Source: Escherichia phage A221. Taken from it: a DNA stretch of 64,000 nucleotides. Shown here one piece after another: positions 49,420 to 59,579 of the stretch (position 1 is the stretch's first letter; the number at the start of each line of letters is the position of its first letter). A program made the translations under genes and the position numbers. The notes beneath the pieces were generated by a model. That model made no database searches and had not been told where the DNA came from. It saw nothing but the letters and a program-made list of their open reading frames with translations. The stretch lies in the sequence record ON862890.1. One strand, given 5' to 3'.

Positions 49420-49884
49420 CGCTTATGTTCAGGGATGCTCGCTATTTCATCCCCCGTGTTCGTCATTCAGTTTACCGAACACTGCTGTATGTCACCATAC
49501 AGGCCAGACTATATCACAATCTCCAGAACTGTCTAGAGATTCTCTCCATTTCGAGGCGCTTGCCCCTACTCTACTCGCTTCAGATCAGACGCTTAGTCGT
49601 CGGTCTTGCTTTCGATAGTCGTTGAACCTTGTCACCCACTACTTCAAGGAAATCATCTGGGTTTAACCCAGCGTAACCAAAGAGTCGTTTGAAGTTTCTT
49701 GCCAACTTGCCCCACTCATTCTGGCAAACATTTCCTTCATGACCTTACTCCTTCACCGAGGTTACAGAGTATTTAGATCTTCGTGGCCGACCTTGGCTGC
49801 TGATTATCTCTAAAGAGACTTCCCAGCAATTAAGAGAGTTATTCGATGGTTGTCGCCAACCAAAGCCCCTATGCTGCTAACTTA
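49420..49884 (-). ncRNA. group I self-splicing intron (no ORF) in DNA polymerase gene
   Basis: On minus strand: P-like AATTGCTGGGAAG, Q-like AATCAGCAGCC, R-like GGTTCAACGACTA, S-like GATATAGTC (P7 GACTA/TAGTC); exon 1 ends in U, intron ends in G; splice restores DLNSLYPHII. Confidence 0.75.
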
Positions 49885-56187: not shown

Positions 56188-56227
56188 TAGTGTATCCTCA
56201 AATCTATGATAGGGGGTTAACGGTTAA

Positions 56228-56255
56228 ATTTTAAACCCCCTTTGTATCATTGAAC
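56228..56255 (-). promoter_or_regulatory. promoter candidate GTTCAAT-N15-TAAAAT
   Basis: Minus-strand box 56249-56255, -10 56228-56233, upstream of gene starting 56187. Confidence 0.3.
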
Positions 56256-56309
56256 AAACTATGATAAAGGAGGACATGCTTGGGCCGATAAGAAGATAAT
56301 AAGACAGGG

Positions 56310-56340
56310 ATAAAAAGAAAGCCGGATAGGATATCCGGCT
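56310..56340 (-). terminator. rho-independent terminator ending tRNA transcription unit
   Basis: GCCGGATA-gga-TATCCGGC then UUUCUUUUU on minus strand. Confidence 0.55.
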
Positions 56341-56557
56341 ATACCACATCGATGGGATGGGTTGAAAGACTACACGCTTGCACTGGTACTACCCTATGGG
56401 AGAGCGCGTCAGGAGTCGAACCTGAAGTCGTCGACGTAGAGAAAGCTATTTGCATTTCACTATCCTCGCCTCGATTTTCTTAACTTCCTAAACACCCCGA
56501 TTACGAGAGAGTCGACATGCACATCTTCTAACTCTTCAGGAAGTCACGCCCGTAATT

Positions 56558-56646
56558 TGGCGGAAGGTGAAGGATTCGAACCTTCGGGGGCTAAAAGCCC
56601 CACTCGATTAGCAGTCGAGTCCCTTAAACCTCTCGGGCAACCTTCC
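56558..56646 (-). tRNA. tRNA-Ser (anticodon GCU)
   Basis: Cloverleaf folded by hand: acceptor GGAAGGT/ACCTTCC, anticodon loop CTGCTAA, long variable arm, T-arm GAAGG-TTCGAAT-CCTTC, CCA encoded. Confidence 0.85.
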
Positions 56647-56899
56647 AATTTGGACGGGCTTCACACCCGATTGAGCATTTGATCTGCCGTAGCCCAACTC
56701 CCCGCGCTTCTCAGCGCCGATTGGTTAACTGGCGACCAGTGCCTTCTGGTTCGATCTCCTGGAACTTTACAGGCTTTGCGCCCGACCATTTCTGGAAGTT
56801 GGGGCATCGTTTCCGATGCGGAGTCATCCCCATTTTATACACAGCTGGCTGCAACGCTTACTGTGTTTGTCGGAGTGTTATGTTTCACACCCCTTAACA

Positions 56900-56976
56900 T
56901 GGTGATCCTGATTGGGTTTGAACCAATGACCAATGAATTATGAGTTCACTGCTCTAACCAACTGAGCTACAGGACC
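56900..56976 (-). tRNA. tRNA with CAU anticodon (Met, or Ile if lysidine-modified)
   Basis: Acceptor GGTCCTG/CAGGATC, D-arm GCTC-AGTTGGTTA-GAGC, anticodon loop CTCATAA, T-arm ATTGG-TTCAAAC-CCAAT, CCA encoded. Confidence 0.85.
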
Positions 56977-58990
56977 AAATTATTGTGTACCAACCAAGGA
57001 CTGTCAACCCTTTATCCCGTTTGTGCATGATCAGTTCATGCATGCCTGTTTGTGCGCCTCACGGCATGCGCTTCTGTGGGTCTTTGGCTTGCACCATAGC
57101 CTCGCCACAGGCGTTTATTTTTCCAGGGCTTTCCACTTACAAGTCTTAACCAGACCGGGATACGGGCTTGTAAGATCGGGTTGGACACAACTTTGATAGC
57201 TCTGGTACTAAAGATCCCGCGTCACCCATAGACATGGTTTATAAAATCCAGAGCCATCAAAGTTGCAACCAAATGTTACAACTCGCAGCTTCCATACAGA
57301 AGCAACTTGTCCTCTAACGCTCGGACCAAACTAGGCTGGCTGGCTGGTTGATTCAGAGCCGCTGGTTGCTCCAGCAAGCATGGGTTGATAGCCCGGCAAC
57401 ATAGAATCACCCAAAGATGAAGAACATTCATGACTCACATCACACCACGAATGGTCTGAAAGAGAATCGAACTCTTTAAATGCTCTTCATTTTGTGAACT
57501 TGAGAATACTACGCCTGTCTCGGGTTTCCCCTTAGTTCGGCCTCCCAGTCCTCGCCGCGCCGGGTAGCTAACCCTGATGGCTCGTCTGCTACTGAGTTCT
57601 TCTTGGTGCCCACCAGTGTCCGGAATGTGTAGGCATCGCAATCTGCAAGGCATGGTCTATTTCACCCAATGCTCTCTAAAGTTCACAAATCGAAGTGCCC
57701 TGACTCAACAGTATGGCCCAATATGCTGTTATCGTCCACCGGATTGGCCGCCAAATTTGTAGATCAACCTTTGGGTTTAAGATAAATTGTCAAGGCACTT
57801 CGATTTGTGTGCCCTTCACCTGCCAGGGATCAGGGCTGATGGCAAGACTTCGCTCACATCTTTCAAGATACTCGTGAGAATATCCTCAAAGATGTGGAGC
57901 CGTTTTAGGGAGTCGAACCCAAATGCTTGGCCAGCGCTGACCTTACATCCCATCTGACTTAGGCAACCCACCTCTGCTTACTCAGGAGCTTATCCCCTTT
58001 GGACAGTCAGATATAACGGCATTGTCGACGGGAGATTATTAATCACACCCTCCCGTCTATTTTAGTGCGCCGAATTTGGTGATGAGGAATCGGAAGACCT
58101 CACTGACTTATAGGCTGTTACGCCGCCATCAGAACTTCGGAATCATTAGCAGTTATTTGCTTGGTCAGTTTCTAAAAACCCGCAAAGTCACTCACAACGA
58201 AAACGAAAACCTGTTTGAGCACAAGACACCATGTCCTGGGTTCACATCGAAGTGTTTGTCTAATGCCCAAACAGCTTTTCGCTTCAGTGGGTTAACTATA
58301 CTTTGTAACCCGTTATTGATAAAACCTTTTATTTTTGTTGGCGAGGGTATCACCATCGATTTACCGGAACTTACGCATCCGGCCTCGCCTGTTGGTGCTC
58401 CTTCGAATCCGGGAAGATCAGTAGGAACTATGAATCAAGTTAATTCAACCAACAGGAACCTTGTTGCCCTTTGACGCAACATTATGAACCCTCTATGGAA
58501 GACTCATAATGTTGTCGGCGTGATGGAGATTAGCGCCCCCGACCTCCCCTTGTGTTGGTGTCGACTTGCCAACGGGGTGCTCTCTGATTCTGAGCTAATC
58601 ACGCTACAACAGGGAGTTTCGTTCTCCGACGGTCAAGTGCGTCCACTGACACCATGCAAGGTGGATATTGACTTATGGAGCCGGAGTCCTCGTCCTAGGA
58701 CTGTGCTCGGCCTCAGCCTTTACACCGCTGGTAGCCCGACCCTTTACACCATAAAATTTACTATACTACAGCCCAGCTAATTTGAAAAGTCCTCTCCTCT
58801 TTGAGCTACACTGCCCACAGCAGTGCGGACGAACCTTCACTCAAAACCGGATGCGCCGAAGTGGGCGTCTGTTTACCGGACTGATCGGGTAGACCCAGGA
58901 GAGTAAAGGTAATCCCGATCAGGAGGATGAGGAGTAACATCATGTAAAACATAGTGTTCCCTCCCTTCCATGCAACTAACTTTACTGCAA
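56977..58990 (-). other. ORF-free structured region upstream of tRNA genes (candidate non-coding RNA)
   Basis: About 2 kb without credible ORF on either strand; long complementary segments 57188-57205/57248-57265 and 57684-57699/57794-57809. Confidence 0.3.
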
Positions 58991-59009
58991 TTATTTATTG
59001 AATAAAGCG

Positions 59010-59579
59010 TTATTTTAACACTTCTAACTTCACAATACGACGCAGAAGGTAAACATATTCGCCAGCAGCTTCATGCGTCATATAATGGGTAGAAGGTGTG
59101 GAATGAGTGTTCTGGGTTTCTTTTAATCCAACGCGTTCAGCCCAACCATTAATAGAGTTCCCATAGAAACCGATAATCGCGCCAAAATAAATGCGCCCGC
59201 TTTCTGGCTCTAAAACGTAGTTGACAGTGAAGCAAATGTCAGAACGAATAGACTCCAGTTTCATACCAACACGACCTTCAGAGAATTCGTTACGAACATA
59301 TAAATGACGGAAGCGATTGCGCCGTGCTTGTGATGATTCTTCCAATTCTTGTCGAAGTGAAGAAGTTATGTCAATATTAAATGAAAATGTTGGATTTCGT
59401 AAATCAGAACGGGCCAACTCTAACGCAGATTCAATAACGCGACGGAAATTGATACTTTTACCTGTCAGGCGTTTCACTTCATCGGTGATTATTTCAAAAG
59501 GGATTTTCGTGGCGCGTTCCCCTTCGTATTTTGCTAACAAAGGAACAATGTGTTTCATGATTGCTGTGTTAATGTGCAT
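59010..59579 (-). CDS. hypothetical protein
   Basis: 189 codons. Confidence 0.5.
   Translation of the reverse strand: MHINTAIMKHIVPLLAKYEGERATKIPFEIITDEVKRLTGKSINFRRVIESALELARSDLRNPTFSFNIDITSSLRQELEESSQARRNRFRHLYVRNEFSEGRVGMKLESIRSDICFTVNYVLEPESGRIYFGAIIGFYGNSINGWAERVGLKETQNTHSTPSTHYMTHEAAGEYVYLLRRIVKLEVLK

Follow-up and report, generated by a model that had tools for sequence, protein, structure and literature searches.

Escherichia phage A221 (ON862890.1) carries on its minus strand an RNA gene (58286-58027) which, judged from its sequence, is derived from the messenger part of enterobacterial tmRNA. It lies in a tract which is very probably a cluster of real RNA genes. The window, i.e., the whole stretch of DNA that was analyzed, is 64,000 nucleotides long. 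The RNA has a 10-codon tag, an AUA resume context, a helix-5-like hairpin, and two pseudoknots, and it is a tmRNA-derived RNA without the canonical alanine-accepting tRNA-like domain. Its structure, its tag frame, its complementarity to the host tmRNA, and its distribution are demonstrated below. The sequence-only reading that this analysis followed up contains nothing on this main feature: neither the tmRNA-type tag frame nor the pseudoknots nor the antisense arm.

No conserved ORF is present in 56977-58805 (~1.8 kb), and for this part the earlier claim that the region has no credible ORF was right. It was wrong for the 48-aa ORF at 58806-58952 on the minus strand (MFYMMLLLILLIGITFTLLGLPDQ...), which lies outside the RNA cluster proper. 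The claim that RBSs are absent was also wrong for this ORF, as GGGAGGG, a strong RBS, is found seven bases before its ATG. The ORF is intact in three relatives (L002, L003, and L092; 94-96% amino acid identity), is an annotated CDS in two GenBank relatives, and is, from its sequence, probably a real small membrane peptide gene. It had been considered that homologous regions might encode proteins. The 132-aa and 98-aa plus-strand ORFs carry stops or frameshifts in relatives, and their protein-coding reading was rejected. The 72-aa minus-strand ORF (57435-57653) is open in relatives, but its ~57% identity was judged compatible with neutral drift, and a clear RBS is lacking. In some relatives, small ORFs are placed in the tract by gene callers. 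The Pfam search of the flanking ORFs gave nothing informative. The ORF-poor tract extends beyond the originally noted region, to about 56190-59010, and its GC content is 45-50% throughout.

The tract is conserved in 417-516 phage records. Between distant genera, its non-coding DNA aligns equally well as, or better than, the flanking genes, and intergenus blocks in the tract are 78-91% identical although the flanking genes no longer align. Modules of the tract are found independently of one another in unrelated phages. The comparative alignment that had been recommended revealed conserved hairpins and compensatory changes in relatives; 39 pairs are kept by such changes in two RNAs, the tmRNA-derived RNA and B1 with its upstream hairpins. 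The sense strand of the ~1.8 kb tract, with its many conserved hairpins, is the minus strand, shared with the two tRNAs. The strand was assigned from the minus-strand position of the promoters and the terminator, from the G-U pair 165-193 in the tmRNA-derived RNA, and from a prophage copy in the late-operon sense. The tract is best read as a non-coding transcription unit on the minus strand of an Ackermannviridae phage. The unit would have several promoters and a single terminator, and would contain two tRNAs together with several tRNA-like elements and at least two structured RNAs that are conserved.

The suggestion of a large structured RNA is half correct. Structured RNA is present, but three to four minus-strand promoter-like sites (consensus scan) and separable modules speak against one large RNA. 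The Rfam search of the tract hit no large-RNA family; GOLLD, ROOL, and other Rfam large RNAs gave no covariance-model match even at E up to 10. An origin-type element, the other proposal, was rejected: there are no iterons, only five direct repeats of 12-17 nt in two or three copies in the tract, and at its GC content of 45-50% no AT-rich unwinding element is seen.

The tag frame of the tmRNA-derived RNA (58118-58150) reads GCU AAU GAU UCC GAA GUU CUG AUG GCG GCG UAA, corresponding to ANDSEVLMAA*, a tag of the tmRNA type. It is preceded by AUAACU, which puts AUA at -6 to -4 like A84 U85 A86 in the host. The tag length is exactly 10 codons in 45 of 45 homologs, which share the GCN AAY GA start and the stop at the end. 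The homolog tags comprise 22 nucleotide versions and 15 peptides, and variation is at every third codon position. The peptides open with AN(D/E) and close with (A/V/S)A; the ends include MAA, AVA, and VAA, and no tag ends in LAA. Of the 45 sequences found by regular expression, 43 have AUAAAU or AUAACU ahead of the resume codon. The Serratia copy retains the A at -4.

Downstream of the coding part, the structure is supported by covariation. The helix-5-like hairpin (58103-58132) has the stop codon in its loop, and compensatory changes are seen in all four of its four pairs. In pseudoknot a (58070-58102), the stem is UGAGG/CCUCA and the loop CCGA pairs with the downstream UCGG; CCAG:CUGG substitutes for CCGA:UCGG in seven sequences. 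Pseudoknot b (58027-58069) consists of CGCAC with the loop GUGUG, the stem GACGGGAG/CUCCCGUC, and the near-invariant loop GGUGUGAUUAAUAAU. Over the 22 pairs in five helices, with the two pseudoknots, 97.7% of the positions are paired across the homologs, and 19 of the 22 pairs show compensatory changes. None of 500 shuffles was as good, and slid controls reached 34-48%. The pair 165-193 is G-U in 41 of 43 sequences.

At its 5' end, the RNA forms hairpin A (58204-58281; -34.5 kcal/mol, z -5.2), which recurs in every genus of the Ackermannviridae, where the stem sequences differ. The hairpin leader CGAAAAG base-pairs with the first GUUUUCG in the antisense arm, and this seed is masked in Ackermannviridae. 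The consensus scan placed a promoter, TTATCA-16-TATAGT, at 58295-58322. TTGTCA...TATAGT is found at the same place in Ackermannviridae of Klebsiella, Serratia, and Erwinia, and in the siphovirus C1, the module is immediately preceded by a consensus promoter of its own, TTGACA-17-TAGATT, which supports an independent gene. The RNA is predicted to start at GAUAGUUUUCG in the C1 module and near 58286 in phage A221.

Standard searches do not recognize this RNA. ARAGORN found no tmRNA in 50 homologs at default or 95% thresholds, and none in the window at default. The best Rfam match was tmRNA_permuted with 24.1 bits, followed by tmRNA with 10.5 bits, both below the cut-off of 47 for each. A canonical one-piece or permuted tmRNA was rejected on the failure of default ARAGORN and Rfam. 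Finders that demand a tRNA-like domain overlook this class of RNA.

The arm upstream of the tag (58163-58211) sits where tmRNA has pseudoknot 1 (PK1), and RNAalifold shows only a 3-bp hairpin at this place. The arm is antisense to about nt 57-106 of host ssrA, that is, to the 3' half of PK1, A86, the resume codon, and codons 1-6. Against K-12 ssrA, there are three collinear reverse-complement blocks of 11/11, 9/10, and 13/14, about 33 bp in sum; the 9/10 block was read by eye, and blast reports only GCGACT (ssrA 86-91) there. The RNAduplex energy of the arm and ssrA is -53.6 kcal/mol, versus a shuffle mean of -34.6. For the homologs, the median duplex is -47.4 kcal/mol and the median z is -3.4; these z-scores are moderate, are based on mononucleotide shuffles, and come from RNAduplex, which ignores intramolecular structure. 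Of 43 homologs, 38 have their predicted duplex at this same ssrA site, and for 39 of them ssrA is a better target than rnpB, ssrS, and reversed ssrA.

The arm fits the host codons GAC GAA AAC U; at these positions, the codons of the phage itself vary freely. The spacing from the arm to the tag is constant at 22-23 nt. The target is almost invariant among the Serratia and Erwinia ssrA sequences listed, and 120 host ssrA genes have 55 versions of nt 45-125. The host target segment is too conserved for covariation with the arm to show. An intramolecular partner of the arm, AGUUUU/GAAACU, was rejected as there is no compensating change where GAAACU varies (alignment A3).

Homologs with 10-codon tags were found in 491 phage records (T1-like, N4-like, HK620, Felix-O1-like, and P1) and in 144 of 5426 E. 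coli genomes. The tag module is spread across at least six unrelated phage groups or families. In P1, it adjoins tRNA genes, and in the E. coli prophage, the copy is in the late-operon sense. The module is unannotated in nearly every record among those listed. The literature search, tag peptides included, found no description, which does not prove absence from the literature.

Downstream of the tmRNA-derived RNA is the 126-nt tRNA-like element X (57895-58020; fold z -0.9). X has a 6-bp acceptor GCCGUU/AACGGC, two long arms, a T-arm GGG-UUCGACU-CCC, and then U73 and an encoded CCA; its position 3:70 is C-G, not G-U. Its T-loop belongs to GGTTCGACTCC, which is present at 56422 and 57919 in minus sense. 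The 56422 site is in a second T-arm-like element (56397-56429), CAGG-UUCGACU-CCUG followed by ...CUCCCA, within the conserved block 56397-56547; for ARAGORN to call it, the intron option and the 85% threshold were needed. The third element (58518-58604) has the 7-bp closing stem GCGUGAU/AUCACGC and a D-arm-like GCUCAGAAUCAGAGAGC, and its remaining arms are aberrant. Its single-sequence fold is not significant (z 0.28), and its core (58525-58597) belongs to the small number of blocks that can still be aligned with Serratia and Erwinia phages.

As had been noted, the T-loop-like elements are not canonical cloverleafs: neither GGTTCGACTCC site was called a tRNA at default ARAGORN thresholds. In the relaxed mode that had been proposed, X, the 58518-58604 element, and the 56410 unit were called only at 80-85% thresholds; Rfam tRNA and default ARAGORN call none of the three. 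The interpretation as degenerate tRNAs is correct as far as tRNA-like elements are present, but the T-loop at 57919 is in a 126-nt element with an encoded CCA and is not simply a decaying tRNA. The tRNA-like elements of the tract are probably RNase P/E processing signals, and for X, the predicted fold suggests that it is probably a processing signal or a decoy.

Further upstream, a small element (58340-58389; z -1.5) is closed by GGCGAGG/CCUCGCC. In Kuttervirus SJ3, a fuller tRNA-like version with a T-arm is at this place. The consensus scan found another promoter-like site, TTTTCA-17-TATAGT (58760-58788, 9/12 matches).

On the other side of X, a very stable hairpin (57855-57896, inverted repeat I4; -23.7 kcal/mol, z -6.95) follows immediately past the CCA, formed by the additional complementary pair 57855-57873 and 57878-57896. 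A long hairpin closed by a 21-bp stem (57681-57814, inverted repeat I3) appears in the alifold consensus of four relatives. The two complementary segments described earlier are real and longer than reported. The second spans 57684-57704 with 57789-57809 (21 nt, 95%). The first, reported as 18 bp, spans 57181-57205 with 57248-57272 (25 nt, 84%); it belongs to two hairpins (57194-57284) that are helices 1 and 2 of the B1-region alignment, and seven pairs of helix 2 are maintained by compensatory changes in relatives.

B1 is a 206-nt multi-helix RNA (56984-57189) just upstream of tRNA(CAU), supported by conservation and covariation. Its identity is 91% to the copy in a Dickeya phage and 78% to that in a Serratia phage, with diverged flanks. 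B1 and the two hairpins just upstream have 79 pairs, 96.7% of which are paired in the alignment versus 29-39% in slid controls, and 20 show compensatory changes. The Rfam search of B1 (241 nt) gave no match, and blast against E. coli rnpB, ssrS, and ssrA gave nothing at E <=0.5. The interpretation as a miniature RNase P RNA, based on GGAAAGCCCUGG and ACAAACGGGAUAA seen by eye, was rejected as this 241-nt search matched neither RNase P nor another Rfam family.

A promoter-like TTGACA-17-AATAAT (56979-57007; 11/12 consensus matches) before tRNA(CAU) overlaps the 3' strand of the B1 closing stem. ARAGORN and Rfam confirmed the two tRNAs reported earlier and found no others: the tRNA with the anticodon CAU at 56900-56976 (Rfam 70.6 bits) and tRNA-Ser(GCU) at 56558-56646, both on the minus strand. 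The spacer between them (56647-56899) is 92-96% identical across genera; relatives have extra tRNAs (Tyr, Asn, and Trp) within the corresponding interval. The intrinsic terminator that ends the unit (56340-56320), a 9-bp stem followed by TTCTTTTTAT, is the sole minus-strand terminator-like site, in agreement with the earlier reading.

Trans-translation is the main bacterial ribosome-rescue pathway and a drug target. It has been tied to phage growth (lambda-P22 hybrids and Mu) for decades. The host tag is ANDENYALAA, in which LAA is the ClpX signal. We infer that the tmRNA-derived RNA is expressed, anneals to host tmRNA, and is used by ribosomes. After infection, the arm would anneal to the single-stranded tag template of host tmRNA and invade PK1. 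The duplex would mask the host resume codon, and the phage tag template would be held about 22 nt from the duplex, beside the host tRNA-like domain and SmpB. Rescued ribosomes would then fail to tag, or add the phage tag with its MAA, AVA, or VAA end in place of ANDENYALAA. The chance that the RNA acts on host tmRNA by pairing, either by blocking or by template swap, is considered to be about even. The specific version, in which the phage RNA re-programs host ribosome rescue in trans and replaces the host tag template by base-pairing, is offered tentatively and may well be incorrect. To our knowledge, there is no precedent for a template supplied in trans by base pairing. The masked GUUUUCG seed in Ackermannviridae and the moderate duplex z-scores count against the pairing model. 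In addition, a 50-bp intermolecular duplex could just trigger RNase III cleavage, leading to inhibition, not tag swap. Also, tRNA-like elements with a T-arm and CCA lie downstream, both in the window and in the E. coli prophage.

The latter point leads to a self-sufficient, unconventional phage tmRNA, in which the tag module would work with its own charged, SmpB-binding tRNA-like element and the arm would only remove the host competitor. The tRNA-like element could be X in the window or, in lambdoid prophages, the GUUGUGGUG...T-arm...CGCCACAAC-CCA module. X has the T-arm loop UUCGACU, the 6-bp acceptor stem, and the encoded CCA, with scattered short sense-strand matches to the 3' end of ssrA. 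Downstream of the prophage copy there are a D-arm-like AGCUCAAUGGCGAGCU, a T-arm of canonical form (GCCGG-UUCGAUU-CCGGC), and CCA. AlaRS needs G3-U70, but 3:70 is C-G in X and U-A in the prophage module. The tRNA-like element is entirely downstream of the tag, the 5'/3' topology of tmRNA is absent, and RNase P would therefore cut the element off. The downstream modules are non-homologous between lineages, and C1 has neither T-loop nor CCA. ARAGORN at 80-85% does call a tmRNA with the right tag in the window and five homologs, but it makes no call in 45 of 50 homologs even at 85%. This low-threshold model was rejected, as its 5' strand GCUGUUU is locked in the covarying hairpin A. A self-sufficient tmRNA is considered unlikely.

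It is rather improbable that the RNA is a pure inhibitor, switching off trans-translation of the host as an antisense or decoy RNA, with a tag frame that is a relic of the ancestral tmRNA fragment or a decoy for SmpB or the ribosome. The complementarity spans exactly the resume codon and A86, as expected for an inhibitor, and the phage DS6A has the tRNA-like domain of tmRNA alone, a molecule reported to be tmRNA-inhibiting (PMC4131195). However, across 22 nucleotide versions from at least six unrelated phage groups, a relic would not retain exactly 10 sense codons, the stop, the AN(D/E) start, and the (A/V/S)A end. It would also leave the AUA resume context unexplained, as well as the spacing, which is constant at 22-23 nt. 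A graveyard of decaying tRNA/tmRNA pseudogenes, a coding region broken by sequencing errors, or a replication origin is very improbable: several elements resemble damaged tRNAs, relatives carry more intact tRNAs in the same tract, and some have the small ORFs annotated by gene callers, but the 39 pairs maintained by compensatory changes in two RNAs, the 78-91% identical blocks between genera with flanking genes beyond alignment, the dispersal of the tag module among unrelated phage families, the broken plus-strand ORFs, and the lack of iterons all contradict it.

If the template swap is true, the host tRNA-like domain and SmpB would append a phage tag without the ClpX signal LAA, and the system would be a naturally split, inter-genomic tmRNA, common in enterobacterial phages (P1, HK620-like, T1-like, N4-like, Felix-O1-like, and Vi1-like). 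We know of no phage-encoded trans-translation effector in enterobacteria. A conserved RNA with a tag template and complementarity to the host template would be that effector, and it would represent either a novel mode of tmRNA inhibition or the first exchange of a template between two genomes. In hundreds of phage genomes, P1 among them, and in many E. coli prophages, this RNA gene is unannotated or overlaid by spurious small ORFs.

Among known systems, GOLLD and ROOL are likewise large, ORF-free, conserved RNA regions beside phage tRNAs, but the tract has no Rfam match to them and is an array of separable small modules. The species 1 and 2 RNAs of T4 and the c4 RNA of P1 are stable RNAs in phage tRNA clusters, and c4 is released by RNase P. 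The RNAs of the tract resemble them as small structured RNAs that would be co-transcribed with tRNAs and released by tRNA-processing enzymes. There is no sequence relation; the T4 RNAs are without known function, and c4 acts on phage mRNA. Phage-encoded tmRNAs (mycobacteriophage cluster C, e.g., Bxz1, and Bacillus phage G) are also trans-translation RNAs beside a tRNA cluster. They are complete and canonical, whereas the A221 RNA is a messenger half with an antisense arm in phages of Enterobacterales. A precedent for a partial tmRNA with a proposed disturbing effect on the host system comes from mycobacteriophage DS6A, whose gene comprises the tRNA-like domain alone (PMC4131195); only the tRNA-like half is present there, and only the messenger half here.

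With bacterial tmRNA (SsrA, RF00023), the phage RNA shares the Ala resume codon after AUA, the ~10-codon AND... tag with an Ala-Ala-type end, the stop codon in the helix 5 loop, and the H-type pseudoknots after it. In contrast to bacterial tmRNA, it has no end-to-end acceptor stem, no G3-U70, and probably no PK1, its region upstream of the tag is antisense to host tmRNA, and it scores far below ARAGORN and Rfam thresholds. In the two-piece (circularly permuted) tmRNA (RF04321 and relatives) of alpha-proteobacteria, cyanobacteria, and beta-proteobacteria, the family of the best Rfam match (24.1 bits), the tag template is on another chain than the 3' half of the tRNA-like domain and is held by base pairs. 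Those two pieces come from one gene, and the coding piece keeps the 5' acceptor strand. The partner of the phage RNA would instead be the complete tmRNA of the host, contacted via its tag template.

When the ORF-poor tract was compared with 50,697 phage records, a segment of ~170 nt (58035-58204) was found to recur in unrelated siphoviruses (~46-58 kb) and in an N4-like phage, at 70-82% identity. The matching DNA is unannotated in most of these records, and the copy in the N4-like phage adjoins a tRNA array. Alignment of seven copies in the minus sense revealed a reading frame, which in the window is GCU AAU GAU UCC GAA GUU CUG AUG GCG GCG UAA and encodes ANDSEVLMAA. The siphovirus tag is ANDDVVLMAA, and the tag of E. 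coli tmRNA is ANDENYALAA. In Rfam, the region gives weak matches to tmRNA_permuted (24.1 bits), spanning the tag, and to the tmRNA T-arm.

An exact-pattern scan of IMG/VR and GenBank loci yielded 46 distinct homologs. The 45 caught by a strict regular expression all have exactly 10 codons, in 22 nucleotide versions and 15 peptides such as ANDEQFLAVA, ANDDLMLMAA, ANEEMYLAVA, ANDNTFLAVA, and ANDNEFKVAA. All third codon positions are variable across these frames, and the stop codon is UAA in 44 and UAG in one. Further tags are ANDNAYLMVA (Serratia), ANDNEFKVAA (Erwinia), and ANDDLMMVAA (P1); none of the homologs compared has a tag ending in LAA. Immediately before the frame, 43 of the 45 homologs have AUAAAU or AUAACU; thus, AUA sits at the position of A84-U85-A86 of E. 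coli tmRNA. These are the known frame-setting bases, and the role of U85 and A86 is established. Judged from this comparison, the tag frame is kept in evolution.

The structure of the tag module (58286-58027, minus strand) was tested with five helices on a 43-sequence alignment, using 500 shuffles and, as a control, partners slid by 1-3 columns. The features tested include a helix-5-like hairpin with the stop codon within its loop, a pseudoknot in which the hairpin loop CCGA pairs with UCGG downstream, and a second pseudoknot between CGCAC and the initial loop bases of the following hairpin. The five helices are paired in 97.7% of cells, with compensatory changes in 19 of 22 pairs. No shuffle matched this pairing (0/500), and the slid controls were 34-48% paired. 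One pair is G-U in 41 of the 43 sequences and therefore fixes the strand of the RNA. A promoter, TTGTCA/TTATCA-N16-17-TATAGT, lies at an equal distance upstream of the module in four Ackermannviridae genera, and the consensus TTGACA-17-TAGATT immediately precedes the module in siphovirus C1. These analyses show that the module is a conserved RNA gene with its own promoter, a maintained structure that includes two pseudoknots, and a tag template of the tmRNA type. There is little doubt that the gene is genuine and derived from tmRNA.

At the default and 95% thresholds, ARAGORN called a tmRNA neither in the window nor in any of 50 extended homologs. Lower thresholds gave one tmRNA at 90% and five at 85% among the homologs. 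In the window, a tmRNA is called only at 80%, by pairing 5' GCUGUUU with 3' AAACGGC-U-CCA. This call was rejected because the 5' strand is part of a hairpin (58204-58281, minus strand; z -5.2), which is found in every genus with differing stem sequences. The T-arm at 57919 is part of a self-contained element of 126 nt that resembles a cloverleaf (58020-57895, minus strand), encodes CCA, and has C3-G70 in place of G3-U70. The results show that the tag module is devoid of an alanine-type tRNA-like domain. Its RNA is not assigned to the tmRNA class because it has no tRNA-like domain. In other lineages, hairpin units GGUAAGRGCAUU...AGUGCYCUUUCC, some enclosing a T-arm, flank the tag module, and a stem-closed tRNA-like module follows. 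These flanking elements show no homology between lineages, and it is unlikely that the module uses an unconventional tRNA-like domain of its own; we infer that the elements are tRNA-like processing signals. Conserved tRNA-like fragments are also present in the tract at 58604-58518, 58389-58340, and 56429-56397.

Siphovirus, prophage, and P1 loci (e.g., L016 13170-13650 and L024 1350-1710) carry repeated hairpin units, ACAGGUAAGAGCAUU...variable 26-170 nt...AGUGCUCUUUCCGUUGU, around the tag module. Their outer stem covaries (CUAUC/GAUAG versus CACAAC/GUUGUG), and a T-arm is sometimes found inside. They may serve as processing signals, or they may be small mobile elements derived from tRNAs.

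Upstream of the tag, the module has a conserved sequence that is the reverse complement of host tmRNA, as shown by comparing E. coli K-12 ssrA with the prophage copy of the module. In this copy, UAGUUUUCGUC complements ssrA 96-106 (11/11), UUUGCGGGUUUUUA complements ssrA 68-81 (13/14), and GUUGGCGACU complements ssrA 86-95 (9/10 by eye; blast gives only GCGACT, ssrA 86-91). The three blocks are collinear with ssrA, and the GUUGGCGACU block spans A86 and the resume codon of the host. The window counterpart of this arm is GGUUUUCGUUUUCGUUGUGAGUGACUUUGCGGGUUUUUA at 58211-58173. With RNAduplex, the best duplex site is around ssrA 54-117 in 38 of 43 homologs, with a median energy of -47.4 kcal/mol and a median z of -3.4; the duplex beats all 40 shuffles in 34 of 43. 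As a target, ssrA outscores rnpB, 6S RNA, and reversed ssrA in 39 of 43. The arm matches the host codons GAC GAA AAC U, while the phage's own codons there differ and vary; therefore, it is the host RNA, and not the phage RNA, that the arm complements. The host target hardly differs among the Serratia and Erwinia ssrA sequences inspected, although 120 Enterobacterales ssrA sequences have 55 distinct versions of nt 45-125. Such conservation of the target would account for a conserved arm in phages that infect different hosts. In every lineage, 22-23 nt separate the arm from the resume codon. In all Ackermannviridae (window 58281-58204), the first GUUUUCG of the arm is paired with a 5' leader (CGAAAAG, CGGCAAG, or CGGUAAG), which thus resembles the host target ACGAAAAC; the leader may mask the seed of the arm.

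It is very probable, from sequence and predicted pairing, that the tmRNA-derived RNA acts on trans-translation, and it probably pairs with host tmRNA. The arm would anneal to the single-stranded tag template of host tmRNA, opening its pseudoknot 1 (PK1) and hiding the host resume codon. The phage template, with its own AUA context, would then be held ~22 nt from the duplex beside the host tRNA-like domain, and ribosome rescue would either add the phage tag or fail to tag. PK1 is replaceable by other helices, and natural two-piece tmRNAs exist; this geometry is therefore conceivable. Substitution of the phage template for the host template is a tentative proposal. That the RNA, with its maintained tag frame, is an inhibitor only is doubtful. 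Two internal loops that break the duplex between the arm and ssrA might protect it against RNase III.

Sequence matches place the tract and its flanks among Ackermannviridae phages. Identity is highest, at 95-97%, to Escherichia phage vB_EcoM-ZQ1, PC3/PH4, and Salmonella phage vB_CECAV_050 (Agtrevirus); to Kuttervirus and Klebsiella Taipeivirus-like phages, ~80% is retained. Dickeya, Serratia, and Erwinia members share the gene order of the window (PLP enzyme, small ORF, tRNAs, long unannotated stretch, ~190-aa gene, and baseplate wedge), and their unannotated stretch is also 1.5-3 kb. The ORF-poor tract (~56190-59010) is bounded by 214-aa and 189-aa ORFs, each on the minus strand. The sequence-only reading had found no credible ORF on either strand up to 58990. 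This holds for the plus-strand 132-aa and 98-aa ORFs, which are cut by stops or frameshifts in relatives, and fails for a 48-aa ORF at 58806-58952 (minus strand). Its ATG is preceded by GGGAGGG, contrary to the claim that no RBS is present, and it is intact in three relatives at 94-96% amino acid identity and annotated as a CDS in two GenBank relatives. The part wholly without ORFs therefore ends around 58805 (~56977-58805). The tract is a cluster of small RNA genes. At its upstream margin, the 48-aa ORF is conserved, has a strong Shine-Dalgarno sequence, and encodes a hydrophobic product; a Pfam search gave no family match. A 72-aa Arg-rich ORF (57435-57653, minus strand) has no stops over 58 codons in four relatives (57-100% identity) and lacks a clear RBS.

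Other features proposed in that reading were borne out. ARAGORN and Rfam call only two minus-strand tRNAs, tRNA-Ser(GCU) (56558-56646) and one with the anticodon CAU (56900-56976), and 56340-56320 is the sole minus-strand terminator-like site. Both long complementary pairs are genuine and longer than described, and a third was found. Both T-loop-like GGTTCGACTCC motifs exist, and ARAGORN at default thresholds calls neither as a tRNA. Promoter-like sites on the minus strand are at 59018-58990, 58788-58760, 58322-58295, and 57007-56979. Additional intact tRNAs (Tyr, Asn, Trp, Ile, Gln, Pro, Cys, and Lys) occur within the homologous tract of relatives, and HNH endonuclease genes are inserted there in some, including Salmonella phage Se-G and Klebsiella phage HMGUkp5. 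Outside the tract, a phage gene is presumably interrupted by a group I intron at 49485-49872 (minus strand; full-length match to Rfam Intron_gpI at 58.8 bits against a gathering score of 50, including a 160-nt insertion).

Upstream of the CAU tRNA is a 206-nt multi-helix RNA, B1 (57189-56984, minus strand), which retains 91% identity to a Dickeya phage and 78% to a Serratia phage, where most of the remaining tract is unalignable. The alifold model of B1 and the two hairpins directly upstream has 79 pairs, 96.7% paired, with 20 compensatory pairs (slid controls 29-39%), figures flattered by building and scoring the model on the same seven sequences. A search of Rfam with B1 gave no match, and a by-eye resemblance to conserved regions of RNase P was not supported by sequence or Rfam comparison. 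A 49-nt part of B1 (57130-57178) recurs at 96% identity in Klebsiella phage KP13-26 (144 kb), which is unrelated. At 57290-57900, helices are retained in four relatives, with weaker evidence of 7 and 9 compensatory pairs. Between the two tRNAs, the spacer (56647-56899) is 92-96% identical across genera, above the surrounding tract, and has a T-arm-like CUGGUUCGAUCUCC on the plus strand. SJ3 has an annotated tRNA-Asn on the opposite strand in another part of the tract.

The tmRNA-derived RNA is widespread and unannotated. The tag module is present in 491 phage records, from Ackermannviridae, T1-like and other siphoviruses, N4-like podoviruses, HK620, Felix-O1-like myoviruses, an Aeromonas phage, and P1/P7. 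Among the matches listed, most records have no annotation under the module and a few have a hypothetical protein. It is also found in 144 of 5426 complete E. coli genomes. In the lambdoid prophage of E. coli 55989 (L131, 3900-4360), the module lies between the Q antiterminator and holin genes in the late-operon sense. In Stx phages, tRNAs and toxin genes occupy this interval, the late-operon leader. The tag module of the 55989 prophage is followed by a 150-nt tRNA-like module with the 3' end ...CGCCACAAC-CCA. In P1, the module lies after the dmt terminator, ~350 nt upstream of tRNA-Asn and tRNA-Thr. The P1 record MH422554.1 contains the full module, with the tag ANDDLMMVAA, unannotated at 1480-1760. 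Past the tRNAs, at 2110-2195, it has an unannotated D-arm-less tRNA-like unit with a GGUAAGG/CCUUACC acceptor and a canonical T-arm.

A search of mostly open-access literature, including for the tag peptides, revealed no description of the module, although one may exist elsewhere. Phage tmRNAs described so far come from cluster C mycobacteriophages and Bacillus phage G, and the DS6A gene consists of the tRNA-like domain only (PMC4131195).
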